64,000 nt of DNA from an uncultured delta proteobacterium (GCA_963739295.1 CAVTZS010000015.1:13574-77573), one strand, 5' to 3'; shown: positions 1,911 through 62,692, counted from the stretch's first letter. The notes: generated from the letters alone by a model not told the origin. Translations and numbers: made by a program.

Positions 1911-2103
1911 TGTGGGGGAGGGCCAGGGAGTTGAACTCCCTGCCCTCCCCCCACGCCCCCCTCCCAACCCGCTTAAGTTGACCCATAGAAGTCGGGGCCT
2001 CAGGCCCCGACTTCTATGGGTCAATTCTAAACATAAGGGGTTGGGGGTGGGGGTGAGGGGGAGGATTGTAAGTGGGCCTGCGGCCCCTGGCCCCCTCCCC
2101 CTC
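1911..2103 (+). repeat. composite intergenic repeat, full-length copy (hp1-hp2-hp3), forward
   Basis: hp1 is GGGGGAGGGCCAGGGAGttgaaCTCCCTGCCCTCCCCCC. hp2 is CCTCCCAACCCGCTTAAG, a 43-nt GC hairpin, then ATAAGGGGTTGGGGG. hp3 is GGGGGAGGATTGTAAGTGGGCCTGCGGCCCCTGGCCCCCTCCCCC. Confidence 0.9.
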
Positions 2104-2108
2104 AATTT

Positions 2109-3459
2109 CTATAACCTCCCCTCAGCCTGCAAGGCGTTTTTCAGGGCCAGGGCCTTTTCGGCCACGGCCATGGGGGTGGGGCCCAGGATGCGGATCATGG
2201 GCTCCTTGCCCACCTCGCCCTTATCGTAGATCAAGTCCGGGGGCGCTTCTCCGGGCTTCAGCACCGAGGCCACGCCCCAGGCCAGGGTGCCGCCTTCTTG
2301 GTCCTTGATTTCGTGCGGCTCCTGAGAACGGTCAAAGCTGGCCAGCCGCAGGTGCAGCAGGGGGGCCAGGCCTTCCAACCCCTCGAGATATTTGATATTC
2401 ATGGCGCACCGGAGGTCCGGGTGGGTTTCCATGGCGGCTAAGATGATGGCGGCGATGTGGCGGGAAGCGCCGAATGCCGGGGGCGCAGGGATGATCAGGC
2501 CCTGGGGGCTTTTCAGCAAGCGGCCTGGAAAGGCCGCCACATCCTGGGGCCCTTCGGGAAAAGGGGTGGCATAGCCCAGATTGGTCATAACTTCCGGCAC
2601 CAGGGACTCAATTCCTTCCTCTTGCAGGCGGGCCGCGGCGATTCGCAAAGACTCCAAGACCTCATAGCGGGACAACTCCCGGGCAAAGGGGGCATAGGGG
2701 TTGACCGGCCCCCGGCCCCGGCCCAGGGGTAGACCATAGCGGAGGGCCTGGGCCGTCAGGCGGCGGGCTTGATTTACCGCCTCCGGCATGGAGAGCCCCA
2801 GGGCCAGACCCGCGGCGCAGGCCGTGGCCAGGGCGCAGCCCGAGCCATGGTTGTGGGGCGCAGGCAGGCGGGCTCCCGGCAGTTGATAAGAATTCTTCCC
2901 ATCGGTGAGGAGGTCCACCGGCTCTCCCGGGCAGGTGGCCACCCTTGGCCAGGACCCAGCGGGGTCCCAGGGCTTGCAGGCGACGGGCCGCTTCTTCCAG
3001 GTGCGAGGGGCTAGTGATTTCCAGACCGGTGAGCCTGGCCGCCTCAAATACATTGGGGGTCAGGAGGTGCGCCAGGGGGAAGAGCTCCTCCCTCAGGGCC
3101 TTGACCCCGGCCTCCTCCAGCAAGGGGGAACCGTCGCTGGCGGCCAGGATGGGGTCCAGCACCAGGGGGAGGGAGAGCTCCTTAAGGAGCCGGGCCACCG
3201 TCTTAACAATCGCGGCCGTGCCCAACATGCCTATCTTGACGGCAGCCACCGGGAAATCACTCACCACCGCTTCCAGCTGGGCGGCCACCACCTCGGGGTC
3301 CACCGGGTGGACTGCCTGAACCCCCTGGCTATTCTGAACGGTTAGGGCGGTAGCCACGGTCAGGCCGTAGGTCCCCATGAGGGTGGCCACCTTCAAATCC
3401 TGCTGCAGGCCCGCGCCCGCGCCCGGATCGGAGCCGGCAATAATCAACACGGTCTTCAT
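2109..3459 (-). CDS. thiDN: ThiD (HMP/HMP-P kinase) fused to a ThiN-type thiamine-phosphate synthase domain; one apparent frameshift near 2925
   Basis: MKTVLIIAGSDPGAGAGLQQDLK...VLAKGGHLPG continues after a 1-nt frame change as EPVDLLTDGKNSYQLPG...HNHGSGCALATACAAGLA. A ThiN-like domain follows (VPEVMTNLGYA, DVAAFPGRL, FGASRHIAAIIL). Span is 1351 nt = 3n+1. Confidence 0.8.
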
Positions 3460-4442
3460 CACATCCTCCGGCCAAAGTGGAGACAACGCCGGGCCTCGCC
3501 TATCAAAGCCCGGCGCCAGTCCCAGGGAAGGTAATCATTTCGAGCAATGCGTAACTCAGCCAAGGCCATGTAAAAGGGGTTGAGAAGTACAAGGCGCTGG
3601 GCCAGGTCCGGGGGCGCCTGAACCGCGTTCAGGTATGAGGAAAAAAGGTGGCGGATGTAAGGTTCGGCCCGGCCCATCTCTCCGGTGCGCCAGCCCCAGG
3701 CGTGCTTCAGTTCGCCCGCCACCCAGGAAAGGTCCCAGAGGCGGTCCCCGATCCTGAGACGCTCCAGGTCCAGGGCCACCACCCGGCCCTCGGGAAAGAG
3801 GAAATTGGTGGGGGTGGCATCGCCGTGGATCAGTACCTGGCGGTCAGGAAATCTGCCCAAGCGGACTTCCCAGGCGACCCTTTCTTTTTCCAGGGCCCCC
3901 TCGTCCTCCGGCGTCAGCAGGCCCAGCCCCCGTAACTGGCCCCTGAGCTTATCCAGGTAATGGAGAGCCGGGTCAGGGGAGACCGGGCCTTCCGGGATGG
4001 GGCGGGTATGGAAGATCGCCAGGAGTTCGCCCAGGTTTTCCAGGCCGCGGTAAAGGAGGTCGCTCCCGCCATTGGCGCAGGCCTGGATCATGAGCTGGTC
4101 CAGGTGGGGGCCGGGTATATCCTCCAGCAGCAGACCCAGGCGCACTTGGGCGCGGCATCCCAGCAGCCGGGGTATCAGGCGCGCCCCCGTGCTCAGCCCC
4201 AAATCTGCGGCCCAGAGATAATTATCATATTCTCGCACCAGGCTCCGATCCCCGGGTGAACGGGGGGGATAGGCGAGGAAGAATTTCCCCACGGCTCGAG
4301 CCCTGCTTTGAGTGCAGACCAAGCGATAGACCTGGCGGGATGAGGGCAAGGGCTCCAGAATTATTTCTTCCGAGGGTGAGCCAGCATTCTCCGTAGGCAG
4401 CAGCTCGCCCAGCGCGCTGGCCAGGGGCTCACCCGCCAGCAA
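3459..4442 (-). CDS. phosphotransferase (APH/choline-kinase-like) family protein
   Basis: Kinase-like motifs HGDATPTNFLF and ALDLERLRIGDRLWDLS. ATGA stop/start overlap with thiDN. Confidence 0.6.
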   Translation of the reverse strand: MLAGEPLASALGELLPTENAGSPSEEIILEPLPSSRQVYRLVCTQSRARAVGKFFLAYPPRSPGDRSLVREYDNYLWAADLGLSTGARLIPRLLGCRAQVRLGLLLEDIPGPHLDQLMIQACANGGSDLLYRGLENLGELLAIFHTRPIPEGPVSPDPALHYLDKLRGQLRGLGLLTPEDEGALEKERVAWEVRLGRFPDRQVLIHGDATPTNFLFPEGRVVALDLERLRIGDRLWDLSWVAGELKHAWGWRTGEMGRAEPYIRHLFSSYLNAVQAPPDLAQRLVLLNPFYMALAELRIARNDYLPWDWRRALIGEARRCLHFGRRM

Positions 4443-4448
4443 ATCGGC

Positions 4449-5210
4449 TCATGGCCGGCCCCGGTCAAGGTGGCTCTGGGCCTCCAGGCAGCACCCCAGA
4501 GCGCCGTTGAACTGGGGGTGGGGGGGCACCGTGACCTGAAAATCGCTCCGTTCCGAAAGGAGCTGCACCACCGCCCGGTTTTGGGCCACTCCGCCCACAA
4601 AGACCAGGGTGCGGCAGGGGTAGCGGCGCACCATGGTCAGGGCCCGGCGAGCCACCGAGGCGTTGACCCCCGCGGCGATGCGGGCCGGGTCCACCCCTTC
4701 CAGGAGATGGCCGATGAGTTCACTTTCGCCAAAGATGGCACAGGTCTGGGAAATGTCCACCGGGTCCTGGGAGGCCGTGGCAAACTCAGTGAGGGGCATT
4801 TTTAAAAACCGCGCCATATTTTCCAGATAGCGGCCGGTGCCCGCGGCGCACCGGTCGTTGGTGAGAAAGTCAAACACCCGACCGTCTTTGATGTACAGCA
4901 CCTTGGTGTCCTGACCCCCCACTTCCAGGAGAATAAAATGGTTAAGCCCGGTCTGCTGGCGAGCCCCCAGGAAATGGGCCCGGATCTCGGTGATAGTGGG
5001 AAAATAATCCTGGAGCAGCTTCTTGCCATAGCCGGTGACTACCAGGGCCTCCGGTGGGGCCAGGCCCAGGCGCTCCCAATCAACGGCCAGGCCGCCATCT
5101 ATTCGGGCCAGATAATCCCGATAAAAAATAAGACTGTCCAACTGGCGCCGGCCAAAACCTCCCTCCCCCTTGGCATAAACCAGCTTGACAAACCGGCTGC
5201 CAAAGTCCAA
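4449..5210 (-). CDS. BadF/BadG/BcrA/BcrD-type ATPase (acyl-CoA dehydratase activase-like); start uncertain
   Basis: LGLDFGSRFVKLV, EVGGQDTKV, NDRCAAGTGRYLE and VFVGGVAQN. The first ~77 aa of the track ORF (4449..5450) are a translation of a repeat copy, so a TTG/CTG start near 5210-5216 is assumed. Confidence 0.7.
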   Translation of the reverse strand: MDFGSRFVKLVYAKGEGGFGRRQLDSLIFYRDYLARIDGGLAVDWERLGLAPPEALVVTGYGKKLLQDYFPTITEIRAHFLGARQQTGLNHFILLEVGGQDTKVLYIKDGRVFDFLTNDRCAAGTGRYLENMARFLKMPLTEFATASQDPVDISQTCAIFGESELIGHLLEGVDPARIAAGVNASVARRALTMVRRYPCRTLVFVGGVAQNRAVVQLLSERSDFQVTVPPHPQFNGALGCCLEAQSHLDRGRP

Positions 5211-5231
5211 CCCCAGGGCGGAGGGAGAGTG

Positions 5232-5418
5232 GTGGGGGGAGGGCCAGGGAGCTGAGCTCCCTGCCCTCCCCCCAGTTCCCCCTCCCAACCCGCGGATGGG
5301 GCTGGGGGAAGCGGGGCCAACGGCCCCGCTTCCCCCAGCCCAAAAAATATCAAGGGATTGGGGGTGGGGGTTTGGGGGAGGATTGTCAGGGGGCCTGCGA
5401 CCCCTGGCCCCCTCCCCC
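5232..5418 (+). repeat. composite intergenic repeat, full-length copy, forward
   Basis: Same three-module architecture as 1911-2103, with a different but self-complementary hp2 tip (GGGCTGGGGGAAGCGGGGCCaacGGCCCCGCTTCCCCCAGCCC). Confidence 0.9.
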
Positions 5419-5427
5419 AAGTCTTTA

Positions 5428-6432
5428 CTACGGCCGCAGGACATCGACAAAGGCCTCCAGGCGCATGCGGGTGCGGGAATCCAGGGGTGTGGGGCGGTCC
5501 CCTTCGATGGTCAAAATGGGTACTGGCAAGCGCTCCCGGAGCATCTGGTCAAACATCTGGCGGAAGCAAAAGCTCTGGGTGTAATGCACCAATCCGTCCA
5601 GGCGGCGCCTGGCCACCGCCTCCTCCAGATCCGCCAGACGCCCGAAAATATCGTAAGGATAAGTGTAATGGAGATATTGATCCACCAGATCCAGTTCCGG
5701 ATGGGGCATACTGAATTGCCGGGGGATTTCATGGAAGACCACGGCCGCCCCCAATTCTTCCAGGTAGTTCCACAGGTCGGTGAAGATGGGGGGGATGCCC
5801 GCAAATCCCAGGCGGACCCGGGCCGGGTGAGGCGGGCGTCCCTCTGCCTCCTCAAGAAAACTTGCCACCTTGCGAGAAAACGCCTCCACCTCGGATTCAA
5901 AATCCGAGCTGGCAATGAGAAACTTAAAATTCTCCTGGCCCCGCACCTGGCCCGACTCCCAGGTGAGGCGATCCAGGCGGCGCAAATCCCGGCGCAGAGG
6001 TTTAAGCCGGGCCTGAACCCGGGCCACCTCCGCCTCCTGGGTGCCCAGGCGAGCCATCAGGGCGGTTATCTCTTGATGCAGTTGCTCTCGGTCTTTGGGG
6101 TAGGGAAATTTGAAATGGATGACCTCTCGCCCCTGGGCCTCCAGGATTTCTCCCAGGGCCTGGGTGTAGGAGCAATCTCCCTGGCAGGCGACGATGACCA
6201 CCTGAATTTCCGGGTGGCCTTGAAGCGCCGCGTAGATGCCTTTGACCCAGGCGCAGATGGTGCGGGGAAAGCCCGCGCCTTCCGCGTCGCTCACCCGGCG
6301 GTAGGCCTCGGGTTCGCCAATGAACACATTATTCAGGTCCACCGGCACCAGCCCCGCGGCCAGTACCACCTCCACCGGAATGGTGGTGGTCAAGCCCACT
6401 TTGGTGCCGGGAGGGTAAGTTTTATGTTTCAT
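5428..6432 (-). CDS. 2-hydroxyacyl-CoA dehydratase family protein
   Basis: 334-aa ORF with family-typical segments (TTTIPVEVVLAAGLVPVDL, VVIVACQGDCSYT, HYTQSFCFRQ). It lies directly upstream of the activase-like gene. Confidence 0.7.
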   Translation of the reverse strand: MKHKTYPPGTKVGLTTTIPVEVVLAAGLVPVDLNNVFIGEPEAYRRVSDAEGAGFPRTICAWVKGIYAALQGHPEIQVVIVACQGDCSYTQALGEILEAQGREVIHFKFPYPKDREQLHQEITALMARLGTQEAEVARVQARLKPLRRDLRRLDRLTWESGQVRGQENFKFLIASSDFESEVEAFSRKVASFLEEAEGRPPHPARVRLGFAGIPPIFTDLWNYLEELGAAVVFHEIPRQFSMPHPELDLVDQYLHYTYPYDIFGRLADLEEAVARRRLDGLVHYTQSFCFRQMFDQMLRERLPVPILTIEGDRPTPLDSRTRMRLEAFVDVLRP

Positions 6433-6456
6433 AAGATAAATTTATAGTTTTCTGCC

Positions 6457-6577
6457 TGGGAAGGCGGGCTTTCAGCCCGACTTCCCAAAATCCCTGACGC
6501 AGATGGAAGGGTATGGGGGGAGGGCGGGTCAGGGGCGGTTCGGCGAACCGCCCCTACGCCCCTGGCCCTCCCCCCAC
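6457..6577. repeat. composite intergenic repeat, partial copy with nested palindrome
   Basis: An hp2-like hairpin TGGGAAGGCGGGCtttcaGCCCGACTTCCCA is followed by GGGGGGAGGGC...GCCCTCCCCCC arms. The arms enclose AGGGGCGGTTCGgCGAACCGCCCCT. Confidence 0.8.
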
Positions 6578-6580
6578 ATC

Positions 6581-7282
6581 TTATTCGCCCCTCCCAGGCC
6601 GTTGCCCGAAGATGGCGGTGCCCACCCGCACCAGGGTAGCCCCTTCCTCCACCGCCACCTCAAAGTCCCCGGACATGCCCATGGAAAGTTCGTTCAGGGG
6701 ACTGTCGGTTACCCCCCGGCGCCGCAGCCGGTCCCGGAGTTCTCTCAGCGCCCGGTAAAAAGGACGGACCCTTTCCGGGTCGGCAAAGTAAGGGGGCATG
6801 GTCATCAAGCCCAGCAGGCGCAAATGGGGGAGTCGGGAAATCTCCCGAACCAGGTCCGGCACCTCCTCCGGCGGGGCCCCGGATTTGGACGCCTCTCCGG
6901 CCAGGTTAACCTCGACGAGGATTTCTTGAATCTTATCAAGGCGGGCCGCGGCCTGCTCCAGGGCCTGGGCCAATTTTACCCGGTCCACGGAGTGGATCAG
7001 CTCAAAGAGCTCCACCACGGCCCTGGCCTTGTTGGTCTGCAGGTGGCCCACGAAGTGCCAGTTCACCCCCGGCCCCAGGGCCAGGATCTTGCCTCTGGCC
7101 TCCTGGAGATAATTCTCTCCGAAGAGGCGCTGGTCCGCGGCCACCGCCTCTTTCAGAAGTTCGCCGGGCACCGTCTTGCTCACCGCCACCAAGCGCACCT
7201 CCGCCGGGTCCCGGCCCACGGCCCGGGCCGCGGCCGCCAGGCGCTGTCTCACTTCCTCCAGGTTCCGGGCAATCTGGCTCAT
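6581..7282 (-). CDS. yggS: YggS-family pyridoxal-phosphate homeostasis protein
   Basis: RLVAVSKT, FGENYLQE, WHFVGHLQTNK, LSMGMSGDFEVAVEEGATLVRVGTAIFG. Confidence 0.85.
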   Translation of the reverse strand: MSQIARNLEEVRQRLAAAARAVGRDPAEVRLVAVSKTVPGELLKEAVAADQRLFGENYLQEARGKILALGPGVNWHFVGHLQTNKARAVVELFELIHSVDRVKLAQALEQAAARLDKIQEILVEVNLAGEASKSGAPPEEVPDLVREISRLPHLRLLGLMTMPPYFADPERVRPFYRALRELRDRLRRRGVTDSPLNELSMGMSGDFEVAVEEGATLVRVGTAIFGQRPGRGE

Positions 7283-7297
7283 ATTAGGTGTAGGTTA

Positions 7298-7342
7298 TGG
7301 GGGAGGGGGCTAAGGGCCTCAGGCCCCTGGCCCTCCCCCCAC
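7298..7342. repeat. composite intergenic repeat, solo hairpin derivative
   Basis: TGGGGGAGGGGGCTAAGGGCCtcaGGCCCCTGGCCCTCCCCCCAC. It contains the tatD stop codon. Confidence 0.8.
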
Positions 7343-8137
7343 AATCTCTTCCTCCGGCCTCCCGTCCAGGCCGAAGGCGGTCAGGGTATTTTGCCAGGTC
7401 TGGCTGGCCACTTCTTCCAGGGAGAGGTCCAGGATTTGCGCCAGTTGTTGGGCCGTGGCCCTGACGTAGGCCGGCTCATTGCGTTTCCCCCGCCAGGGCT
7501 GGGGAGGCAGATAGGGACAATCGGTCTCCACCAGCACTCGATCCAGGGGCAGTCTTTGGGCCACCTGGCGCAGAGCCTCCGCCTTGGGATAGGTGAGGGT
7601 GCCGGAGAAGGACAGGTACAGGCCCAGGTCCAGGAAGGCCTGGGCTTCTTCCAGGCTGCCGCCGAAGCAGTGCATCACCCCACCCCAAAGCCGGCTGCGG
7701 TATTCCCGGAGGATGGCCAGGGTGGCGCTGGTTGCCTCCCGGGTGTGAACCACCACGATTTTTTTCAGTCCATAAGCCCATTCCAGTTGCCGGCGAAACC
7801 AATGCTCCTGCACCGCCTCGGGGGCGCGGCGGCGATAGAAATCGAGGCCGGTCTCGCCCACGGCCACTACCTTGGGATCGGCGGCCAGGGAACTTAGGGC
7901 CTCCAAATCCTGGTCCTTGAGAGACCCCACCCCATGGGGATGAACCCCGATGGTGGCAAAGACCCCGGAGCACTTCCGGGCCGTGTTCAGGACCTGGCGG
8001 GATTGGTTTAAGCCGATCCCCACATTGATAATCAAAGCCACCCCAGCCTCCCGGGCCCGCTGCAACACCTCCCCTTGGTCGGGTTGGAGCTCCGGCAGAT
8101 CCAGGTGGGCATGGGCGTCAGCCAGGCGCATGGTCAT
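7319..8137 (-). CDS. tatD: TatD-family metal-dependent hydrolase
   Basis: MTMRLADAHAHLDLPE, GVHPHG, VAVGETGLDFYR, HTREA, ETDCPYLPP. The internal Met at 8137 is preferred over the track start at 8203. Confidence 0.8.
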   Translation of the reverse strand: MTMRLADAHAHLDLPELQPDQGEVLQRAREAGVALIINVGIGLNQSRQVLNTARKCSGVFATIGVHPHGVGSLKDQDLEALSSLAADPKVVAVGETGLDFYRRRAPEAVQEHWFRRQLEWAYGLKKIVVVHTREATSATLAILREYRSRLWGGVMHCFGGSLEEAQAFLDLGLYLSFSGTLTYPKAEALRQVAQRLPLDRVLVETDCPYLPPQPWRGKRNEPAYVRATAQQLAQILDLSLEEVASQTWQNTLTAFGLDGRPEEEIVGGGPGA

Positions 8138-8212
8138 ATCTTTAAGCTTATGGACGAATGTTCCCTTGCATGGTAAAATAAACAAAATTTCGGCGCCCTG
8201 CAAGGAGAGGCG

Positions 8213-9043
8213 GTGATTTCCAGGGTTTTTGGGATTTTTCTGATGTGCTGGGCTTACTTGGGGGTGCCCTCATTAGCGGTGGCCGAGGATTGGGGCCACA
8301 CCCCACCCAAATGGCAGGTTTTGAGCCGGGGCCTAAGTTTTTCTCTGGTGGAGGTGCTGCGGGACGGGGAAGAGGTGGGATACTTGGCCGTGGTGAAGAT
8401 AGACCCCGCCACTAATGCCTTCCGGGTCTTCCACCACGCGCCTAAGGCCATTACCGACTGGCAGAAAGAACTGAAGGCAGCCGTGGTATTCAATGCCTCC
8501 TATTATAGCCCCGATGGGAAACCTTGCGGCCTCATCCTGGCAGATGGCAAGCCCGTGGGACCGGCGCGCAATCCGCAAATGCGGGGTATGTTTGTGGCGG
8601 AACCCAAAGGCATGTCCCCGGATTTACCCCGGGCCACCATTCTCGACCTGACCCTCACTCGGGTCTCACCCCAGAATCTGCCCTGGAGCCAGGGGGTGCA
8701 ATCCTTCCCCCTGTTGCTGGATTCCCAGGGGCGCATTCGGGTGCGCCAGAGTGAGAAAACCGCTCCCCGCAGCGTCATCGCCACGGACCGCCAGGGCAAC
8801 ATCCTGGTCTTTAATACCAATAACGGTTATTTTACCTTATATGATTTGGCCCAATTTCTGAAAGAAAGCGACTTTGAGGTGGACACCGCGCTCAATCTGG
8901 ATGGCGGCAGCGAGGCGCAGCTTTATATCAAGGTCAAAGACTTCGAGCACTTCTCTCCCACCTATTGGGAGACGCAGATTGGCAGCTTCATAGATCGGAA
9001 GCAGTTTGAGTTGCCCACGGTGGTGGCAGTATTTCCCCGTTGA
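8213..9043 (+). CDS. phosphodiester glycosidase family (DUF2233/NAGPA-like) protein with N-terminal signal-like segment
   Basis: Hydrophobic N-terminus VFGIFLMCWAYLGVPSLAVA. C-terminal ALNLDGGSEAQLYI is typical of the family. Confidence 0.6.
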   Translation: MISRVFGIFLMCWAYLGVPSLAVAEDWGHTPPKWQVLSRGLSFSLVEVLRDGEEVGYLAVVKIDPATNAFRVFHHAPKAITDWQKELKAAVVFNASYYSPDGKPCGLILADGKPVGPARNPQMRGMFVAEPKGMSPDLPRATILDLTLTRVSPQNLPWSQGVQSFPLLLDSQGRIRVRQSEKTAPRSVIATDRQGNILVFNTNNGYFTLYDLAQFLKESDFEVDTALNLDGGSEAQLYIKVKDFEHFSPTYWETQIGSFIDRKQFELPTVVAVFPR

Positions 9044-9054
9044 GGTTTGAGGGC

Positions 9055-9726
9055 ATGGCAAGGTATCTTATTCTGGGCGCAGGAAAATTCGGCCGCCTGG
9101 CCTTGGAACGCCTGGCCCGGCAGGATGACGAGGCCAGCTTCCTGGTGGTGGATGAATCCTCCCAGGCCCTGGCCGCGGCTCGGGCCCTTTTCAATAATAA
9201 TCGGCTGCACGTGGTAAAGGCGGAGGCCGTGGCTTTCCTGCTGAAGTTTCTGAAGGAAGACCCCGGCTGGGACTGGACCATCCCCATGGTCCCGGTACAT
9301 GTGGCCTTTCAGTGGCTGTGGCAGGGCCCCCTGGCGGGATTGGGCTGGCATCTGGCGGAGGTCCCGGAAGCCGTAGAAAAACTGGCCCCCCATGCCCAGC
9401 ACGGCAAACAAGGCGAACTCTACCTGTCCCGGGCCACCCAGCTGTGCCCGGACGATTGCTCCGAACCGGATTTCTGTCCTGTGACGGGCGAGTCCCGGGA
9501 GGTTCCCTTGTATGTGGAATTGGCCGCGCTTAAAATCTCTGATTTTCAGGTCATGGTCGTGCCCAGCCGGCAGTTGGCCCCGGGAGTGGGAGGCTATCCC
9601 AGCGCCTGGTTGCCGGCCCTGGGTCAAGAGTTAACCTCCCTTCAGGGTAAAGTCTTGATCGCCACCGCGTGCCGCTGTCACGGGGTAGTTAATGCCCTGG
9701 CCCGGTGGCCCTGGGGACCCTTTTGA
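9055..9726 (+). CDS. hypothetical protein, N-terminal GxGxxG Rossmann-like motif, Cys-rich second half
   Basis: [20 protein letters not shown]; [15 protein letters not shown] and [11 protein letters not shown] at 9055 preceded by GAGG. The end overlaps the next ORF by 22 nt in another frame. Confidence 0.45.
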
Positions 9727-10667
9727 GCTTCGATTTTGCAGGGGTCATCGGCGTATCCGCCAGGATGCAGGAGATTTATCGTCTCCTGGAACTGGTGTCC
9801 GCTTCGGAGGCCACGGTACTGTTGCTGGGGGAAACCGGCACGGGCAAGGAGCTGGTGGCCCAGGCCATTCATCGCAACAGTCCCCGGTGCCAGGGTCCCT
9901 TTGTGGTGGTCAATTGCGCGGCCCTGCCGGAGACCTTGCTGGAGAGCGAACTCTTTGGCCATGAACGGGGGGCCTTTACCGGGGCCACCAGCCGGAAGGA
10001 GGGCCGGTTTTCCCTGGCCCACCGGGGCACCATGTTCCTGGACGAGATTGGCGACCTCAGCCTGGCTACCCAGGTTAAGATCCTGCGAGTCCTCCAGAAC
10101 CGGGAGTTCGAACCCCTGGGAAGCACTCGCACCCTGAAGGTGGAGGTGCGCATCATCGCCGCCACCAACCGGGACCTGGAAGCCATGGTGCGGGAGGGGC
10201 GCTTCCGCAACGACCTCTTTTATCGCCTCAATGTCTTCCCCGTGGTGCTGCCTCCCCTCCGGGAGCGGATGGAGGATCTGCCCTTGCTGGCCCAGCACTT
10301 CCTGGCCTGTTACCGGGAAAAGAGCGGGCGGCAGGTGAAAGAGCTCTCGGAAGAGGTGCTCCAGGCCTTTAATCGTTACTCCTGGCCGGGAAATATCCGG
10401 GAGCTGGAGAATGCCATCGAGCGGGGGGTAATAGTCTGCCAGAGGGAGACCCTCACCTTAAATGATCTGCCTCCAGGGTTGCAACGCTACGGGTTCTGGC
10501 CGCCGCCGGGCGAGGACGTGGAACCTGAATTGCCGGAACTGGAGAAGCAGTTGATCAGCCGCACCCTGGAAAAAGTGGCTGGCCAGCGCCTTCAGGCCGC
10601 AGAAATCCTGGGCATCTCCCTGGATGAGTTGAATCTCAAGATCCGCTCCTACCGTCTGGAGGACTGA
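9705..10667 (+). CDS. sigma-54-dependent transcriptional activator (AAA+ plus Fis-type HTH) without a sensor/receiver domain in this ORF
   Basis: [15 protein letters not shown] (Walker A), [15 protein letters not shown] (GAFTGA), FLDEIGDL (Walker B), C-terminal [22 protein letters not shown] start. Confidence 0.85.
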
Positions 10668-10678
10668 CAGGTGTCGTT

Positions 10679-11350
10679 ATGATCTTTCCGCCGCTGATCC
10701 TCCTAATGATGCTGGCCTTCTTTCTGGTGGCCCTGATCCTGCTCCCCTTCTTAATGGTGGGGCTCATGGGGGGGGCCTTCATGAAATTGGGGCTCTCCCC
10801 CGGCACGATGTTCTGGCTCCTCATCTTTACCCTGGTGGGCAGCCTGGTCAATATCCCCATCTATTCCCTGAAGGGCCGGGAGGTGGTGGGAGACCTGCTG
10901 GTTTCCTATTACGGCATGCGGGTCCGGGTGCCCCGGGTGCGGCGCCCCCAGGAGACCATCCTGGCCGTCAATGTGGGGGGCGCCGTAATCCCCGTGGGGC
11001 TTTGCCTCTATTTGCTGACCAAGATCGATTTTGGCCTCTACTTGCCCATCCTGGTGGCAGTAGTGACCGTGGTGGTGAATCGCCTGGCCCGGCCCATCCG
11101 GGGCCTGGGCATTGGCGTGCCGGGCCTCATTCCCCCGCTGGTGGCGGCCCTGGGGGCCTATCTCCTCTCCCCTCCGGAACTCAGGGCCGCCAGCGCCTAT
11201 ATCGCCAGCACCCTGGGAATTTTAATCGGCGCGGACCTCTTGAAGCTGGGAGAGATCGCCCAACTGGGCGCGCCGGTGGCTTCCATCGGCGGCGCCGGCA
11301 CCTTTGACGCCATCTTTTTGAGTGGCATCATCGCCGTATTGCTCAGTTAA
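10679..11350 (+). CDS. DUF1614-like integral membrane protein
   Basis: 223-aa polytopic ORF. The family assignment is recalled from its N-terminal pattern (FMKLGLSP...LVGSLVNIPI). Confidence 0.55.
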   Translation: MIFPPLILLMMLAFFLVALILLPFLMVGLMGGAFMKLGLSPGTMFWLLIFTLVGSLVNIPIYSLKGREVVGDLLVSYYGMRVRVPRVRRPQETILAVNVGGAVIPVGLCLYLLTKIDFGLYLPILVAVVTVVVNRLARPIRGLGIGVPGLIPPLVAALGAYLLSPPELRAASAYIASTLGILIGADLLKLGEIAQLGAPVASIGGAGTFDAIFLSGIIAVLLS

Positions 11351-11467
11351 TCCTGGTCAGGCGGGCTTAAGAAGGAACGATTTATTGGAGCGAGGCGGAC
11401 CTCGCGGCTATTACCCTCATTCAGGTAGCCACCAGGCCTAAACGGTATCTTGAGGGAGGTTGAGAAA

Positions 11468-11923
11468 ATGGCGGGTCGGATCAACCACAGCCTGTGGCAC
11501 AAGAGAGCGCCACGATGGGCGATCATCCTGGGCATACTGCTGCTCCCGGTGATTTTGGTGGCCTGGAGCGATGTCAGCGGCAACACCATCAACCCCCGCT
11601 TTGTCGCCAAGATCAAAGACGGGCAGACCACCAAGCATGAGATCCTGCTCTATTTTGGGGAACCGGACGAGGTGGAGCGCAACCCGGAGGGACTGATATT
11701 CAAGTACGCCAGTTACAAGGATGCCCCCCCCATGGGGATGCCGAAGGGGTTTCTGGATCGGGAGATCAACGAGCAATCCCCCCTCCCGTACTTTTTGGAT
11801 GAAGACAAGAAAGTAAAGAAGGTGCAGCCCAAGAAGGAGAGCAAAGTGCTGCGCAGCACCTTGACCATCCGCTTCAAGCCTGACGGGGAGACGGTGCTCA
11901 GCCACGAATATCAGGAATATTAA
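11468..11923 (+). CDS. hypothetical membrane-anchored protein with BamE/SmpA_OmlA-like segment
   Basis: ATG at 11468 lies 9 nt after GGGAGG. One TM (WAIILGILLLPVILVAW). KIKDGQTTKHEILLYFGEPDEV resembles the SmpA_OmlA core. Confidence 0.4.
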   Translation: MAGRINHSLWHKRAPRWAIILGILLLPVILVAWSDVSGNTINPRFVAKIKDGQTTKHEILLYFGEPDEVERNPEGLIFKYASYKDAPPMGMPKGFLDREINEQSPLPYFLDEDKKVKKVQPKKESKVLRSTLTIRFKPDGETVLSHEYQEY

Positions 11924-11935
11924 CGGGAGAGCCGG

Positions 11936-13291
11936 ATGACGGCCTTTTCGGACCTGGCCCAGGCCACGGCCTGGGTCTTTGACTTACAGAAATTCGGCAT
12001 CAAGTTCGGGCTGTCCTCCACCCGCCGCCTGCTGGCCCGGCTGGGCCTGCCATATCAGACGGGCCGCTATATCCACATCGCCGGCACCAACGGCAAGGGT
12101 TCGGTGGCAGCCATGCTGAGCGCCATTCTCACCCGGGCCGGCTATCCGGTGGGCCTGTTCACTTCCCCCCATCTGGTACATTTTAGGGAACGCTATCGCT
12201 TGAAGGATCTGGAGGTCTCGGAAGAGCGCCTGCTGGCTTTGATCAACGAGGTGCGGGCCGCGGTGGACGGGTCCGAGCCTCCCACCTTTTTTGAGTTCGC
12301 CGCGGCCCTGGCCTTTCTCTACTTTTTCCAGGAAGGCGCGGAGCCCATCATCCTGGAAACCGGCATGGGGGGGCGACTGGATGCCACCAATATCATTCGC
12401 CCCCGGGTAACGGTAATCACCAATGTTTCCCTGGACCATCAGGAATATTTGGGAAATAGTTTAACTGCCATTGCGGGAGAAAAGGCCGGGATCATTAAAG
12501 GCGGAGCGCCTTTAGTTACTTTTGCCAAGCAAAAACTGGTGCTGGACCTGCTCCGGCAGCGCTGCCGCCAGCGGGGCGCGCCCCTCTATCTGGGCGGGGT
12601 GGATTTTAAGGTTAGGGGGCGAGGCCAGCAGTTCGATTACCAGGGTCTCCACCAGAGACTCCAGGGCCTGACCCTGAGCCTGGCGGGGCGCCACCAGTAT
12701 CGCAATGCCGCCCTGGCCCTGGCAGTGCTGGAGATTCTGAACCGGGACGGCTTTACGGTAAGTGAGGCGGCGATCCGGGAAGGTCTCAAGCTGACCCGCT
12801 GGCCGGGCCGCCTGGAGCAGGTTCCCCAGGACCCCCAGGTTCTGCTGGACGGCGCGCACAATCCGGCGGCCGCCCTGACCCTGGCCCAGGCCTTGAAAAA
12901 TGGCCACCGCCAGGGGCGTCTCATCCTGGTGGTGGGCATCATGGCCGACAAGGACGTGGAGGGCATCCTGGCCCGGCTCCTGCCCCTGGCCCAGATGGTT
13001 ATCTTCACCCAGCCCCGCTATTTCCGGGCTGCGACCCCCCAGGACCTGGCCCGGCGGGCCCAACCATACAACCTTGAGATTATTCAGGTTCCCCAGGTGG
13101 CGGCGGCGGTCCGGCGGGCCCAGGAACTGGCCGGGCCCCAGGACCAGATCGTGGTCACCGGCTCCCTTTATACCGTGGGGGAGGCCCAGGAGTATTTTCA
13201 GGGGACGGGGGGAGAGGGCCAGGGGTCAAAGACCCCTGCCCCCACCTCAAGGGGAGAGTCAAAATGCGCATCTTTGTCTCCGGTTCTCTAG
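11936..13291 (+). CDS. folC: bifunctional folylpolyglutamate synthase / dihydrofolate synthase
   Basis: HIAGTNGKGSV P-loop, FTSPHLVHFRERY, ETGMGGRLDATN, LDGAHNPAA. The 3' end reads through a degenerate repeat copy. Confidence 0.85.
   Translation: MTAFSDLAQATAWVFDLQKFGIKFGLSSTRRLLARLGLPYQTGRYIHIAGTNGKGSVAAMLSAILTRAGYPVGLFTSPHLVHFRERYRLKDLEVSEERLLALINEVRAAVDGSEPPTFFEFAAALAFLYFFQEGAEPIILETGMGGRLDATNIIRPRVTVITNVSLDHQEYLGNSLTAIAGEKAGIIKGGAPLVTFAKQKLVLDLLRQRCRQRGAPLYLGGVDFKVRGRGQQFDYQGLHQRLQGLTLSLAGRHQYRNAALALAVLEILNRDGFTVSEAAIREGLKLTRWPGRLEQVPQDPQVLLDGAHNPAAALTLAQALKNGHRQGRLILVVGIMADKDVEGILARLLPLAQMVIFTQPRYFRAATPQDLARRAQPYNLEIIQVPQVAAAVRRAQELAGPQDQIVVTGSLYTVGEAQEYFQGTGGEGQGSKTPAPTSRGESKCASLSPVL
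13207..13247. repeat. degenerate solo hairpin of the intergenic repeat inside the folC 3' end
   Basis: GGGGGGAGAGGGCCAGGGGTCaaaGACCCCTGCCCCCACC. Confidence 0.6.
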
Positions 13292-14220
13292 CCTACGACC
13301 GCATCATGGATTTTCCTGGGCGGTTCGCGGATCACATCCTGCCGGAGAAGATCCACATCCTGAACGTCTGCTTCATGGTGAACGGCTTGACCGAGCGGTT
13401 CGGCGGCACCGCCGGCAATATCGCCTATAATCTGGCCCTGCTGGGGGAGAAACCCATCATCTTGGCCACCGCGGGGCGGGATTTCGGGCTTTACCAGGAG
13501 TGGCTCCGGCAGCTGGGTCTGCCCCTGGAGGGGATCAAGGAGATCCCCCAGGAGGTCACTGCCGGAGCCTATATCACCACGGATCAGAGCGACAACCAGA
13601 TCACCGGGTTCAATCCCGGGGCCATGAAGTACCCCTCCCAATATAGCTTCGACGGAGTATCCCCTAAGACGGCCCTGGCCATCGTGGCTCCTGGAAACCT
13701 GGAGGATATGTTGGTCTACACCCGGCAATATAAGGCCCTGGGGGTGCGCTACATCTTTGACCCGGGACAGTCCATCCCGGCCTGGGGCCAGGCCGAGCTC
13801 CAAGAGATGGCTGACGGCGCCCTGGCCTTGATTGCCAATGATTATGAACTGGAGATGTTTCGGAAAAAAACCGGCCTGGATGACGCCCGCCTCCTGGAAG
13901 GCACCGGCATGCTCATCACCACCCGGGGCGAGGAGGGCTCAGAGTTGCTTTCGGCCCAGGGGAGAGAACGGATCCCGCCGGCCAAGGCCCGAAAGGTGCT
14001 GGACCCCACCGGCGCGGGGGATGCTTACCGGGCGGGACTTCTCAAGGGGCTGGCCCGGGGTCTTACCTGGACCCTCTCGGCCCGGCTGGGCGCGGTTTTG
14101 GCCTCCTTTGCGGTGGAACAACAAGGCACCCAGGAACACCGGATGTCCTTCCAGGATCTCTGGGGGCGTTATACCCAGAACTTTGGTCCGCCTCCGGCGC
14201 TGCTTAAGGAAGTCCTATGA
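13264..14220 (+). CDS. PfkB-family carbohydrate/nucleoside kinase
   Basis: GGTAGNIAYNLALLG near the N-terminus and DPTGAGDAYRAG near the C-terminus. Confidence 0.8.
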   Translation: MRIFVSGSLAYDRIMDFPGRFADHILPEKIHILNVCFMVNGLTERFGGTAGNIAYNLALLGEKPIILATAGRDFGLYQEWLRQLGLPLEGIKEIPQEVTAGAYITTDQSDNQITGFNPGAMKYPSQYSFDGVSPKTALAIVAPGNLEDMLVYTRQYKALGVRYIFDPGQSIPAWGQAELQEMADGALALIANDYELEMFRKKTGLDDARLLEGTGMLITTRGEEGSELLSAQGRERIPPAKARKVLDPTGAGDAYRAGLLKGLARGLTWTLSARLGAVLASFAVEQQGTQEHRMSFQDLWGRYTQNFGPPPALLKEVL

Positions 14221-14555: not shown

Positions 14556-14560
14556 TTTTT

Positions 14561-14753
14561 TGGGGGAGGGGGCCAGGGGTCGCAGGCCCACTTACAATCC
14601 TCCCCCAAACCCCCACCCCCAATCCCTTAAGTTAAATTTTGGACTGGAGAAGTCGGGGCCTTCTCAGGCCCCGACTTCTCCAGTCACTTAAGCGGGTTGG
14701 GAGGGGGGTGTGGGGGGAGGGCAGGGAGGTCACCTCCCTGGCCCTCCCCCCAC
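14561..14753 (-). repeat. composite intergenic repeat, full-length copy, reverse
   Basis: Reverse complement of the hp1-hp2-hp3 order. hp2 tip is CTGGAGAAGTCGGGGCCttctcaGGCCCCGACTTCTCCAG. Confidence 0.9.
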
Positions 14754-49653: not shown

Positions 49654-49658
49654 TCTTT

Positions 49659-50868: not shown

Positions 50869-51339
50869 ATGAATAAAGGCTTGTTTCAGAAATATTGCAT
50901 AGACACAAGTTCTCTAATAGAATTAAGGCATTACCCTCGGGTAACATTCCCTTCATTGTGGGAGAAGATTGAGGAACTTATAGGTCAGGGAATTCTAATA
51001 GCTCCTAGGGAGGTATATAGGGAACTTAAGCAACAAGCAGACGATATATATTTTTGGGCAAAGAATAATAAAACAATGTTTAAGGCTATAAATGGAAAAG
51101 AGTTATCAGAAGTGAAAGATATTTTAAAAGTTTATCCAGACCTTATTAATTATAATAAAACTACACCCGACGCCGATCCTTTCATCATTGCTTTAGCTAA
51201 GCATAGAGCATGTACTGTTATTACTCAAGAAAGATTGAAGCCTTCTGGTAAACCAAAAATTCCAAATGTTTGCAAAGATTATGGAATTAACTGTATTGAT
51301 TTATTAAGTTTATTTATTGAGCAAGAATGGTCTTTTTGA
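50869..51339 (+). CDS. DUF4411-family (PIN-like nuclease fold) protein
   Basis: ATG immediately follows the upstream TAA. YCIDTSSLIEL, DADPFIIALAK, VITQE match the recalled DUF4411 pattern. Confidence 0.7.
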   Translation: MNKGLFQKYCIDTSSLIELRHYPRVTFPSLWEKIEELIGQGILIAPREVYRELKQQADDIYFWAKNNKTMFKAINGKELSEVKDILKVYPDLINYNKTTPDADPFIIALAKHRACTVITQERLKPSGKPKIPNVCKDYGINCIDLLSLFIEQEWSF

Positions 51340-51347
51340 AAAAGTGG

Positions 51348-51360
51348 ATAATTGAAATAA
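51348..51360 (+). repeat. 13-bp direct repeat ATAATTGAAATAA, right copy
   Basis: Identical to 49683-49695. Confidence 0.6.
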
Positions 51361-51453
51361 TGATGGAATATTATTTATGATGAAATAGTGATAACCTATT
51401 GATATAATATTAAAAATATAGAATAATTAAGTTAGATAAAAAAGGAGTACAAT

Positions 51454-52564
51454 ATGTTACCTGAAATAGCCGAAATCCGGGCCAAATTGAAAGAATTTAA
51501 AGATAAGCTCACGCTCCTCCGAGGGCATCTTTGATCTGGAGGACAAGCAGGCCAGATTAGCAGAGTTAGAAAAGCAACTGGCCACGCCGGGACTGTGGGA
51601 GGATGCCACCCAGGCCGCCGACCTCTTAAGAGAGCGCAGCGCCCTGACCCAGGTGGTGGAAGATTGCCAGCAGCACTTTAAGCAGGTGGAGGACCTGGAA
51701 GTCCTGCTGGACCTAGCCCTGGAAGAGGACGATCAAGGGGCCCTGAAGGATGTGGCCCAGGACCTGGCCGTCCTGGAGGAAACCTATCAGGGTTGGGAGC
51801 TCAAGCTCCTTTTTACCGAAGAAGACCAGAAGAACGCCATCATTACCATCCATGCCGGCGCCGGCGGCACTGAGGCCCAGGATTGGGCCGAAATCTTGCT
51901 GCGCATGTATCTGCGCTATGCGGAACGCAAGGCCTTCAAGACCGAGACCCTGGACCTGTTGGTCGGGGACGAAGCCGGGATCAAGAGCGTCACCTTTACG
52001 GCCTCGGGAGACCACGCCTACGGCTATTTGAAGAGTGAAAGCGGCATCCACCGCCTGGTGCGCATCTCTCCTTTCGATGCCAGTGGCCGCCGCCATACCT
52101 CCTTTGCCGCGGTTCAGGTGCTGCCGGAGGTGGATGAAAAAATTGAGATCGACCTCAACGAGAAGGACTTGCGGATCGATACCTTCCGGGCCAGCGGCCC
52201 CGGCGGGCAACACGTTAATAAGACCAGCTCCGCGGTGCGCATCACCCACCTGCCCAGCGGCATTGTCGTCACCTCCCAAACCGAAAGATCGCAGCACCGC
52301 AATAAAGAGCTGGCCATGAAGGTCTTGCGGGCCCGCCTCTACAGTCTGGAGCAGCGCAAGCGGGAAGAAAAGAAACAGGAGCTGCAAGAGTCTCAGAAAG
52401 AAATCGCCTGGGGCAGCCAGATCCGTTCCTATACCCTTCAGCCCTACCGCCTGGTGAAGGACCACCGCACCAAGCACGAGGAAGGCAACGTGGATGCGGT
52501 CCTGGACGGCGACCTGGACCCCTTCGTGGAAGCCTATTTGATGCAGCCCGGGGAGGCTAAGTAG
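51454..52564 (+). CDS. prfB: peptide chain release factor 2, with programmed +1 frameshift (51454..51531 joined to 51533..52564)
   Basis: AAGGAG SD. MLPEIAEIRAKLKEFKDKLTLLRGHL, then in-frame TGA at 51532. The +1 frame continues DLEDKQARLAELEKQL... with SPF and GGQ motifs (SPFDASGRRHTSF, GPGGQHVNKTSSAVRITH). Confidence 0.9.
51522..51535 (+). promoter_or_regulatory. prfB autoregulatory +1 frameshift site
   Basis: GAGGG (SD-like), CAT, then CTT TGA T. Same layout as the classical AGGGGG-UAU-CUU-UGA-C site. Confidence 0.85.
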
Positions 52565-54757: not shown

Positions 54758-54766
54758 GGAGATTGT

Positions 54767-54808
54767 TTGGGGGAGGGCAGGGAGCTCAGCTCCCTGGCCC
54801 TCCCCCCA
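54767..54808. repeat. intergenic repeat, solo hp1 hairpin
   Basis: TTGGGGGAGGGCAGGGAGCTCAGCTCCCTGGCCCTCCCCCCA. Confidence 0.85.
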
Positions 54809-54864
54809 ACATTCCTTTAACCATCGCTTAAACCCGCTAGGACCCAGCGGGGTTATTTGGTGGG

Positions 54865-60799: not shown

Positions 60800-61314
60800 T
60801 TTTCCTCCAAGATATATTCTTTAAGGCTTAATAATTTTCTTCAGCTCAAGTTAGGGTGTCGGTATCCCGCTTGCTCCGCAGACCTGCGCCCCCTCCGGTT
60901 AAATCCAGCCCCGGTGATTATCAGAGTTACCAGGACAAATTTTGGATTTGTATCTAATTATATATATATAAAATTACCACCAAAAATAAAAGATTTTTAA
61001 TTAAGCCTTTTTGATTATAGGCCCCCCACCCCCCATGTCAAGCAGAAAATACCAATTTTCACAAACCGCTTTTGGCTTGGGCCAAGGCTCCCATTGACTC
61101 AGAGCAGAGTTGATTTTATCCCGAAGCCTGGGCCAAGGGCTGCTGAGGGCTAGAATCACCTTAGGTCGGGCACCCGATAATGGTAAATTATGATATCTTT
61201 TAGGTAACAGGTATTTAAAGGAACCTGGCAATCCTTATCTTGGGGTACGGTTGGCGGCCGTGCCCGGTGTCAAGAAGGAGCAAAGGGAAAGCCAGGTGAG
61301 GGTGATACGCCAAG

Positions 61315-62499
61315 ATGTCTCAAGAGATCGAGGCCAGACTGGAGTTGTTGCGAAAATTGGGCACGCGCCTGGCCGCGCGGCGGAAAGCCCTGGTGGCCGC
61401 GGCCGGCGAAGATACCGGCACCCCTTGCACCATCGCCGGCCTGGAAGTGGACCTGGCGGTGGACCATCTCCAGACTATGCATCTGGAGGCGCCCCAGGTG
61501 GCGGGCAAAGCCCCTTATGGCACGGTGGCCGCCATCTTCCCCTATGACGCCCCTCCCATCATGCTGGCCCGGGTGGGAGGCGCCGCGGTTCTGGGCGGGA
61601 ACCTTTTTCGGTTCAGTTGCTCTTCCCAGATTCCCCGTACTGCCAGCCTGCTTGCAGATATAGTCGCGCCCTTTTCCGAGTTCGAAGCAGTACTATGGGC
61701 GGATAACCGCCGTTTTGGAGAGGATTGCCTACGCAACCCCCAGGTGCGGGTTCTGTTCATCTCGGGAGGCGGCGAGTTGGGGAAGGCCTATGCCCAGGAG
61801 GCTCACGCCTTCGATAAGCTCTTTTTCGCCGGGCCCAGCGGCCTGCCGCCGGTCCTGCTGTTCAAGGACGCCCCCCTGGATAAGGCGGTGAGGTTTGTAG
61901 TCCGGCGGGCCTTCATCAATGGCGGCCAGTATTGCACCACCCTGAAAAGGGCCTACATCCACCGGGAAATCTATGAGGCGGCCCGGGACCTTATCCTAAA
62001 AGAGATGGAATACATCCAGGTGGGGGACCCCCGGGACCTCAGAACCTGGATCGGCCCCATCAAGGTGGCCCGCACCCGCAAGCTCCTGGAACGGGCCCTG
62101 GCCGCCCTGAAAGAGCCCCACTTTTTACTGCCCCCCCGCCAGGACGGTGAATGGCAGGGTCCCTTCCTGGTGGAGACTCCCGAGCCTCCGGACCTGGAAC
62201 TCTTCGGGCCTCTGTTGGCCTTGTGCCCGGTGGCCAGCGACGCCGAGGCGGTGTCCCGCGGCCTTGCCACCCGTTATCCCTTCCTGCTGAGTTTCTTCGG
62301 CACCCCCCCACCCGGGGCCCGGGAAGAGCTCACCACCACCTTTGGCATGGTTTACGACAATCCCGACTTTCTCTTCACTCCCCTGCGGCTCCCCTTTGGC
62401 GGAAAAAAGGCCAGCGGCTGGATTATTGAGAATCGCAAGGGGCAATTGACCAAACGGGACGGCGCCTTTATCTACAGCGCCGAACTGGTGCGAGGGTGA
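61315..62499 (+). CDS. aldehyde dehydrogenase family protein (short form)
   Basis: 394 aa. FINGGQYCTTLKRAYIH contains the catalytic-Cys region. Confidence 0.65.
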   Translation: MSQEIEARLELLRKLGTRLAARRKALVAAAGEDTGTPCTIAGLEVDLAVDHLQTMHLEAPQVAGKAPYGTVAAIFPYDAPPIMLARVGGAAVLGGNLFRFSCSSQIPRTASLLADIVAPFSEFEAVLWADNRRFGEDCLRNPQVRVLFISGGGELGKAYAQEAHAFDKLFFAGPSGLPPVLLFKDAPLDKAVRFVVRRAFINGGQYCTTLKRAYIHREIYEAARDLILKEMEYIQVGDPRDLRTWIGPIKVARTRKLLERALAALKEPHFLLPPRQDGEWQGPFLVETPEPPDLELFGPLLALCPVASDAEAVSRGLATRYPFLLSFFGTPPPGAREELTTTFGMVYDNPDFLFTPLRLPFGGKKASGWIIENRKGQLTKRDGAFIYSAELVRG

Positions 62500-62508
62500 C
62501 GGAGTTTT

Positions 62509-62692
62509 AGGGGAGGGGGCTAAGGGCCGCAGGCCCACTTACAATCCTCCCCAAACCCCACCCCCAATCCCTTATGATTATGATTTAACGGAAAAGGCGG
62601 GGCCAAAGGCCCTGCCTTTTCCGACCCCATAAGCGGGTTGGGAGGGGGGCTTGGGGGGAGGGCAGGGACCTCAGGTCCCTGGCCCTCCCCCC
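62509..62692 (-). repeat. composite intergenic repeat, full-length copy, reverse
   Basis: hp2 tip is CGGAAAAGGCGGGGCCaaaGGCCCTGCCTTTTCCG. hp1 inner stem is GACCTCAGGTC. Confidence 0.9.

Follow-up and report, generated by a model that had tools for sequence, protein, structure and literature searches.

A family of interspersed palindromic repeats in Desulfobaccales-type genomes, resembling REPINs and BIMEs, keeps its hairpins paired while their sequences vary

REPINs, built from repetitive extragenic palindromes (REP), have conserved inverted ends and a variable spacer that is obliged to form a hairpin, and in them "compensatory changes ... are common" (PMC3116915). The enzyme TnpA-REP reads a GTAG head and a bulge on folded single-stranded DNA and takes the upper stem as non-specific structure (Corneloup et al., PMC8266576); the same source names integron attC sites as an analogue. 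Here we describe a repeat family in a 64,000-nucleotide stretch of DNA from an uncultured delta proteobacterium (GCA_963739295.1, CAVTZS010000015.1:13574-77573), hereafter the window. The window carries 10 composite copies of about 200 nt and about seven solo or partial hairpins, all of one family and all intergenic. Pairing is kept while sequence varies in the inner stem of the first hairpin (hp1), the lower stem of the second (hp2) and the inner stem of the third (hp3). Compensatory covariation is not a new principle, having been described for REPINs in 2011 (PMC3116915). The family, its modular nesting and its mobiliser are undescribed; a search of the literature on Desulfobaccales repeats returned nothing beyond a passing mention of transposable elements of the miniature inverted-repeat kind (MITEs) in Desulfobaccales phages. 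The family is a large and unusually modular addition to the bacterial interspersed palindromic repeats, from an uncultured sulfate-reducing lineage.

Counted from its 5' end at hp1, a composite runs through hp1, a C-rich tail, hp2, an A/T-rich spacer, a G-rich tail and hp3. In the basic unit of about 60 nt, a hairpin of about 45 nt has a GT[G/A]GGGGGAGGGCCAGGG...CCCTGCCCTCCCCCAC stem with a single bulged C, and the C-rich tail of 15 nt comes after it. In hp1 this takes the form GT[G/A]GGGGGAGGGCCAGGG-centre-CCCTGCCCTCCCCCAC, the extra C being bulged from the 5' arm. The C-rich tail is CCCCCCTCCCAACCC and the other tail GGGaTTGGGGGaGGGGG; the G-rich tail (GGGaTTGGGGGwGGGGG) is the pairing partner of the C-rich tail, and together they make up the tail helix (P2). 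A composite is a pseudo-dyad of two such units in inverted orientation around hp2, and its right half is the reverse complement of its left half with small, consistent differences (AAGGCGGGG versus AAGTCGGGG). Units are found alone as well as in composites. Folded as single-stranded DNA, one copy (c3 below) reaches -83.9 kcal/mol, with z = -13.4 against shuffled sequences.

REPINs share the arrangement of inverted conserved units around a less conserved, hairpin-forming spacer (PMC3116915). Like them, the window family is extragenic and high-copy, occurs both as singlets and as inverted doublets, and makes no target-site duplication. It differs from them in its larger unit and in a composite of three hairpins plus a long-range helix. 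The bacterial interspersed mosaic elements (BIMEs) of E. coli are also similar, with slightly different palindromic units alternating in inverted orientation, short linkers and an intergenic location that is often at gene 3' ends. The consistent difference between left and right units recalls the y and z REPs of BIMEs (PMC8266576). Unlike BIMEs, the window family has unrelated sequences, much longer and more G/C-rich stems and a central hypervariable hairpin.

With the outer arms of hp1 fixed and the centre left free, 118 matches contain 67 distinct centres. Of 79 centres nine bases long, 76-77 have Watson-Crick pairing at each of the three inner pairs. The pair 2-8 is Watson-Crick in 76/79, where shuffles average 37 and reach at most 50, and is made up of C-G (46), G-C (26) and A-T (4). 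For the whole element, 63 copies were aligned by a model fitted to the structure and thus leaning towards pairing, a bias that the free-centre test of hp1 and the arm test of hp2 do not have; 94.3% of cells are paired versus 84.7 ± 0.3% in shuffles. Both-side changes occur at 46/70 pairs versus 23.6 ± 2.5, and double-change cells number 355 versus 91.6 ± 8.2, with 0/500 shuffles reaching the observed values. When the 3' partners are slid by 1-3 columns as a control, pairing falls to 48-69%. All of the hp2 left arms are distinct (55/55), and the mean fold energy of hp2 is -34.2 kcal/mol with its own arms versus -21.5 kcal/mol in chimeras with the right arm of another copy. Double-change cells in hp2 number 123 versus 7 one-sided changes, many being swaps of G-C to C-G or to T-A, and one metagenome-assembled genome (MAG) has an hp2 class of its own.

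A first-pass annotation of the window had proposed that hp1 and hp2 vary between copies with pairing preserved. The sequences that it quoted are all present in the window. Its account of hp1 is borne out in substance, except that the seven centres listed as different are partly the same sequence on opposite strands (GAGTTGAACTC = GAGTTCAACTC; GAGCTGAGCTC = GAGCTCAGCTC); the oriented window copies have four inner-stem types, AGT/ACT, AGC/GCT, ACC/GGT and AGG/CCT. For hp2 the paired variation stands, but it had been placed at the tip, which is conserved (CGGGGCC-loop-GGCCCCG), and it is the lower stem that varies. The larger alignment covaries significantly. Given the 67 hp1 centres, the shuffle results and the 55 distinct hp2 arms, the variation is therefore not that of a few subfamilies copied wholesale: dozens of haplotypes occur, though some subfamilies exist.

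Sequence is constrained as well. Across about 25 genomes, almost no variation is seen in the outer stems of hp1 and hp3 or in either tail; the tail helix has double changes at 2/15 pairs, most pairs being invariant. Core identity is 84-95% between orthologous copies and 88.5% over all pairs, and the cores are thus under family-wide constraint. In the variable regions the corresponding values are 54-73% for orthologous copies versus 57% over all pairs. Orthologous copies are no more similar than random copy pairs, and the variable parts are close to saturation in their divergence and pair nonetheless. Since the outer stems and tails are near-invariant, sequence and structure are both constrained; the earlier proposal that structure rather than primary sequence is under selection is too simple as it stands. 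The bulged, conserved lower stem and the upper stem of free sequence are also the features that TnpA-REP recognises on folded single-stranded DNA (PMC8266576).

Conserved cores beside near-saturated paired stems make a clean natural experiment, in which the spectrum of mismatches can tell a constraint on DNA from one on RNA. Mismatches in the variable stems are G·T in 13 cases versus A·C in 17 for hp1, and 22 versus 15 for hp2. Overall, the non-Watson-Crick cells fall into roughly equal thirds of G·T, A·C and other combinations, a split that looks like raw mutation. Orientation relative to the flanking genes is random, with 20 copies sense, 17 antisense, 19 between convergent and 12 between divergent genes, where gene orientation in the loci was called by a crude heuristic (longest open reading frame and third-codon-position G+C) and errors are expected. 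Because G·T is not above A·C and orientation is random with respect to genes, we argue for a constraint at the DNA level, with RNA disfavoured. The transversion swaps in hp2 cannot pass through a wobble pair and likewise point to DNA. The first-pass annotation had left the substrate as RNA or cruciform DNA; its RNA half loses ground, and its DNA half is favoured.

The copies in the window are given below, five composites on the plus strand and five on the minus strand, with bit scores from a covariance model (R1) that was itself built from the window copies.

1907-2107, plus strand: composite c1, 204 bits; fills the gap between convergent genes (1503-1898, plus, and ThiN, 2109-3053, minus)
1912-1954: hp1 of c1
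1956-1970: C-rich tail of c1 (5' arm of P2)
1976-2026: hp2 of c1
2037-2053: G-rich tail of c1 (3' arm of P2)
2055-2103: hp3 of c1
5227-5424, plus strand: composite c2, 196 bits; between minus-strand genes for HGD-D (5428-6432) and a BcrAD-type ATPase, antisense to transcription
6514-6582, minus strand: solo hp1-type hairpin; its loop holds a REP-like palindrome (GTAGGGGCGG...CCGCCCC) and its right arm is degenerate
7297-7343, unstranded: solo hairpin with arms from two different stem subtypes
13206-13252, unstranded: solo family hairpin, degenerate
14556-14758, minus strand: composite c3, 212 bits; between convergent genes
19356-19558, plus strand: composite c4, 208.5 bits; hp1 head GTAGGGGG...CCCCCTAC; fills the gap between convergent genes for an M54 peptidase (18767-19354, plus) and YcaO (19559-21280, minus)
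21402-21599, minus strand: composite c5, 179.8 bits; between an ABC ATPase gene (21618-22355, minus) and YcaO, sense to transcription
25375-25421, unstranded: solo hairpin of the hp3 subtype (GGGGGAGGGGGCTAAGGGCC...), 33.5 bits
26343-26515, minus strand: composite c10, 107.4 bits; degenerate, with hp1 intact and hp2 and the right half decayed
28489-28634, plus strand: composite c6, 131.9 bits; without hp2, the tails linked by GTGTAA
29976-30053, plus strand: fused element, the 5' half of hp1 joined to the 3' half of hp3
36792-36986, minus strand: composite c7, 154.6 bits; hp2 divergent yet fully paired (CCGGGGGAGTTGGGGG / CCCCCAACTCCCCCGG)
45684-45881, plus strand: composite c8, 183.4 bits; antisense, between genes for acyl-CoA dehydrogenase (45878-47017, minus) and CobA (45102-45638, minus)
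47764-47834, minus strand: solo hp1; its loop holds the REP-like palindrome TAGGGGCGGTTCGCGAACCGCCCCTA (47782-47807)
54764-54810, minus strand: solo hp1; inner stem AGC TGA GCT
62503-62699, minus strand: composite c9, 197.3 bits; directly 3' of the aldehyde dehydrogenase stop codon (gene 61315-62499, plus)

Composites c5 and c8 have their hp2 and hp3 subtype in common, and the fused element at 29976-30053 looks like a composite with an internal deletion. Other small motifs are associated with the repeats. A 13-nt motif, TTTTTYGTAAGTG, recurs in the loop of hp1 or hp3, where it can point either way, or else takes the place of some of hp3's left arm as a bulge; it occurs in the window at 14581-14589 (hp3 of c3, ATTGTAAGT) and in other genomic loci (L006 4580-4789, L039, L061, L067 and L070). 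A third small palindrome, CACAGGC-loop-GCCTGTG(CCAC), is nested in hp1 and hp3 loops and also lies alone between genes (L037, L024, L057, L092, L107, L112 and L140). Small outer hairpins in inverted orientation (TTTGCTCCGCAAAGA ... TCTTTGCGAGCAAA) bracket whole composites in three loci (L099 2255-2560, L147 2185-2425 and L152 1645-1890), so that palindromes are nested three layers deep. The G-rich tail together with the start of hp3 (GGGGTTGGGGGTGGGGGTGAGGGGGAGG; 2037-2064 in the window and the equivalent in every composite) matches the canonical G-quadruplex motif, and the left half carries the same motif on the opposite strand. Hairpin and quadruplex would compete for this stretch.

A scan of one genome per species, with the outer arms of hp1 fixed and its centre free, matched at least 101 loci. 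The listed ones are all from Desulfobaccales-type MAGs, labelled Desulfobaccales, Desulfobaccia, Syntrophobacterales, Thermodesulfobacteriota or 'delta proteobacterium'; the genome of the window is not among them, and its nearest relatives there have about 77% DNA identity. Run over the listed loci, the covariance model recovered about 75 further full composites from about 25 Desulfobaccales MAGs. The family is lineage-specific, high-copy and non-coding, being confined among the matches listed to Desulfobaccales-type MAGs. No member was found in viral contigs by two pattern scans or in plasmids by blastn, and 20.5 kb around the RAYT gene (REP-associated tyrosine transposase) of Desulfobacca acetoxidans contains no copy of the hp1/hp2/hp3 family. 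Rfam, searched with gathering thresholds and permissive E-values, gave no family match on the element and only sub-threshold, generic hairpin-like matches to miRNA precursors; on the rest of the window it matched a c-di-GMP riboswitch and a tRNA only.

Occupancy of orthologous sites is patchy. We collected 80 metagenomic YcaO orthologues, most with 70-84% protein identity, of which about 62 have readable downstream sequence. A family member follows YcaO in about 15/62 of the readable loci, as a composite in either orientation or as a solo hairpin; the others have different repeat families or nothing. At one gap flanked by a pair of conserved genes, L099 has a full composite, L077 has a single inverted unit and L100 has no family member. 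The orthologous site of c2 is occupied in L006, L061 and L037. In the comparison of orthologous loci proposed with the first-pass annotation, presence and orientation thus vary at the YcaO site, and the c1 and c2 sites are shared. Target-site duplication is not detectable: the longest direct k-mer shared between flanks averages 3.2, against 3.07 (maximum 3.29) for shuffled pairings. HUH-type single-strand transposition is not known to leave such a duplication. The patchy orthologous sites and the lack of duplication imply an occupancy that turns over in the time that species take to diverge, by a duplication-free route. No clean pair of filled and empty sites that would define the element ends was found, the flanks being too diverged.

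By Pfam, the genes flanking the elements in the window are housekeeping genes, with no adjoining transposase. A wider search used phmmer with E. coli RayT, a hidden Markov model from 90 RAYT homologues and all-against-all clustering of open reading frames, and it found only the RAYT of the clade, which carries a different REP. One homologue, in L080, matches E. coli RayT with E = 8e-40, and the RAYT annotated in Desulfobacca acetoxidans (L183) is among its relatives. RAYT lies between trpC and trpF in four genomes, a position that suggests vertical inheritance. Its flanking palindromes are ATAGGGCGGCCCGYGGCCGCC / GTAGGGGCG...CGCCCCTAC and also ATAGGGCGG.../GTAGGGGCG...; the GTAGGGGCG-loop-CGCCCCTAC palindrome has a classic GTAG head. 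Such sites lie outside the window at L080 2968-3504 and L056 3810-4410. In the window this REP type is rare, with an exact copy at 47782-47807 and a degenerate copy at about 6535-6565, both nested in hp1 loops. The RAYT-associated REPs and hp1 have in common a head of the form GT[A/G]GGGG...CCCC[T/C]AC, and judging by this shared motif it is conceivable that RAYT cross-recognises the hp1 family. In the hp1 head, base -1 is T in 50/65 copies and base -2 is G in 37/65.

Other repeat classes fit less well. ERIC/IRU sequences (enterobacterial repetitive intergenic consensus, or intergenic repeat units), Correia-type elements and MITEs are imperfect palindromes of 100-200 bp that lie between genes in both orientations and have internal insertions and deletions, and in this they are like the window family. 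Classical DDE-type MITEs have a target-site duplication and a parent insertion sequence. The window family has terminal inverted repeats (5' TTTKT-GGGGGGAGGG ... CCCTCCCCC-AMAAA 3'), but target-site duplication is undetectable and about 0.8 Mb of element-rich loci yielded no parent insertion sequence sharing these ends, and we rejected the classical MITE reading. Integron attC sites are similar in that structure is conserved rather than sequence, one strand is marked by conserved extrahelical bases and the centre varies. Unlike attC sites, the window copies are single and dispersed among housekeeping genes rather than in cassette arrays, and the sequence of their cores is conserved; the scanned flanking genes showed no integrase, and the copies were not assigned to this class. 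REPIN/BIME is the closest class: the head is of the GT[G/A]G type as in REPs, and RAYT genes exist in the clade. The family departs from that class in one defining trait, the RAYT genes seen being flanked by another REP.

We think it somewhat probable that the repeats are a new REP/REPIN/BIME-like family of DNA elements that acts as folded DNA and needs its pairing for propagation or retention. The element would act as folded single-stranded DNA or as an extruded cruciform, on which a sequence- and structure-specific protein would read the conserved lower stems, bulge and tails. The best candidate for this reader may be an HUH/RAYT-like single-strand DNA enzyme, with a host DNA-binding protein as the alternative. 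The upper stems and hp2 would not be read base by base and would only need to pair. Copies that lose pairing would no longer be propagated or retained, and the surviving lineages would carry compensated changes. The covariation, the DNA-like mismatch spectrum, the patchy sites and the lack of target-site duplication are shown by the data; the identity of this partner protein and the act of mobilisation we infer. If found, the partner would extend what is known of folded single-stranded DNA recognition by RAYT, IS200/IS605 transposases and IntI.

Several observations, besides the expected errors in gene orientation, weigh against this explanation. All six of the RAYT or RAYT-like genes that were inspected (in L080, in L183-L186 and, frameshifted, in L056, the genome of the window not being among these loci) are flanked by the other REP family and not by hp1/hp3 hairpins, which is a difference from REPINs. 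So is the head, which is mostly GTGG (the commonest form) or TTGG, with GTAG in a minority of copies such as c4. No multi-copy family of transposase-like open reading frames was found in about 0.8 Mb of element-rich loci, a limited sample of genomes. At the c1 and c2 sites, three or four genomes with only about 77% identity carry the element in the same orientation, and this sharing could mean that copies have long been kept for a host function rather than moved. The tail helix has a T·G in 56/63 copies, a legitimate wobble only in RNA of one strand, and the elements regularly abut stop codons, which would suit a role at mRNA 3' ends too.

The last two points belong to an alternative in which the elements function in mRNAs, where stable hairpins would protect 3' ends, punctuate operons or terminate transcription, and selection on the RNA fold would produce the covariation. 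Such roles have been reported for REP, ERIC and Correia elements. The elements sit just after stop codons, with at least one gene 3' end facing the element in 56/68 scorable contexts, and they fold with extreme stability; the conserved T·G of the tail helix and the occupation of two sites in three or four diverged genomes would fit as well. Terminator-like sites, hairpins with a T tract, in the first 20 kb (1-20000) number 21 versus 22.1 ± 6.0 in shuffled sequence. Canonical intrinsic terminators thus appear scarce, and another 3'-end device could be useful. However, the variable stems have no wobble excess, and the trend is reversed when copies between same-strand genes are oriented by those genes (transcript-sense G·U 25 versus A·C 45). 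Sense copies are matched by antisense ones, and the 12 copies between divergent genes lie in promoter-side gaps. No T tract comes after the hairpins (beyond hp2 the spacer is mostly A-rich), and 0/4 composites in window 1-20000 were flagged as terminator-like; we rejected an intrinsic terminator for these G+C-rich hairpins without T tract. With no G·U excess, random orientation and no Rfam match, the repeats do not behave as a structured non-coding RNA family either. Occupancy of the YcaO site is also patchy, and we consider an RNA-level function unlikely.

Pairing could also be maintained without selection if, as the first-pass annotation had allowed, one arm were templated from the other; fold-back priming during propagation or template-switch correction of quasi-palindromes would be candidate DNA processes. 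The excess of double over one-sided changes in hp2, transversion swaps included, would fit, as would orthologous variable regions that have diverged almost to the level of random pairs and are still paired, and the further inverted hairpin layer around composites, with palindromes within palindromes. Fold-back copying would, however, erase the conserved asymmetries that the element retains inside or beside its covarying stems: hp1's bulged C, hp2's G·A mismatch (17/34 scorable copies, any mismatch there in 21/34), the T·G of the tail helix and the A/T-rich spacer on one side of hp2 only. The left and right halves also keep their consistent differences. The templating proposal is therefore disfavoured. 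The residual mismatches have the raw mutational spectrum and do not suggest active correction; local template-switch correction of short patches is possible, and templating as the general explanation is very unlikely. A different alternative takes the copies as immobile, host-maintained sites whose cores bind a nucleoid protein, gyrase or a recombination factor, as has been proposed for BIMEs, with vertical inheritance, occasional loss and gene conversion. It draws on the conservation of the cores over about 25 genomes, orthologous sites occupied in the same orientation, the lack of a transposase linked to the family and the lack of target-site duplication. We regard it as quite unlikely, given that presence, absence and orientation vary at orthologous gaps, that active turnover typically gives such solo, dimeric, truncated and nested forms and that the 20.5 kb of Desulfobacca acetoxidans has no copy despite the clade RAYT there. 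Equally improbable, in our estimate, is propagation or maintenance by an undescribed folded-DNA mechanism, separate from the clade RAYT, that would insert palindromic modules where palindromes already exist, in their loops or centres. If true, it would explain REPs in hp1 loops, hp2 in the tail helix and composites inside outer inverted hairpins, and it might also actively keep the arms complementary, so that they drift near-neutrally and never unpair.

The window has about 60% G+C and ordinary chromosomal genes. By Pfam these include ThiN, a 2-hydroxyglutaryl-CoA dehydratase-like pair, amino-acid permeases, YcaO, ABC transporter components, CobA, acyl-CoA dehydrogenase, aldehyde dehydrogenase and endonuclease V; an exact-protein lookup of the YcaO gene found no record. 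The stop-free, G/C-rich repeats create or lengthen many spurious open reading frames that cross the elements (for example 1900-2229 plus, 5185-6447 plus, 19225-19554 minus and 62638-63381 plus), and are thus a trap for automatic gene calling; they also break MAG assemblies. Two tandem paralogous amino-acid permease genes on the minus strand (14730-16631 and 16622-18589) have 74-88% identity over repeated blocks, with an offset of 1964 bp. The downstream one (14730-16631) extends into c3 and ends at the TGA of the hp1 loop. G+C falls to 0.50-0.53 at 36001-44000 and 48001-52000, stretches that contain no composite and may be acquired DNA; the former includes a tRNA (41173-41245, minus) and a PMT_2-family glycosyltransferase gene. 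The riboswitch matched by Rfam is a c-di-GMP-I-GGC aptamer (24124-24204, minus; 75.8 bits versus a gathering score of 59) that lies upstream of an open reading frame on the same strand (23410-24060, minus), just before its start.

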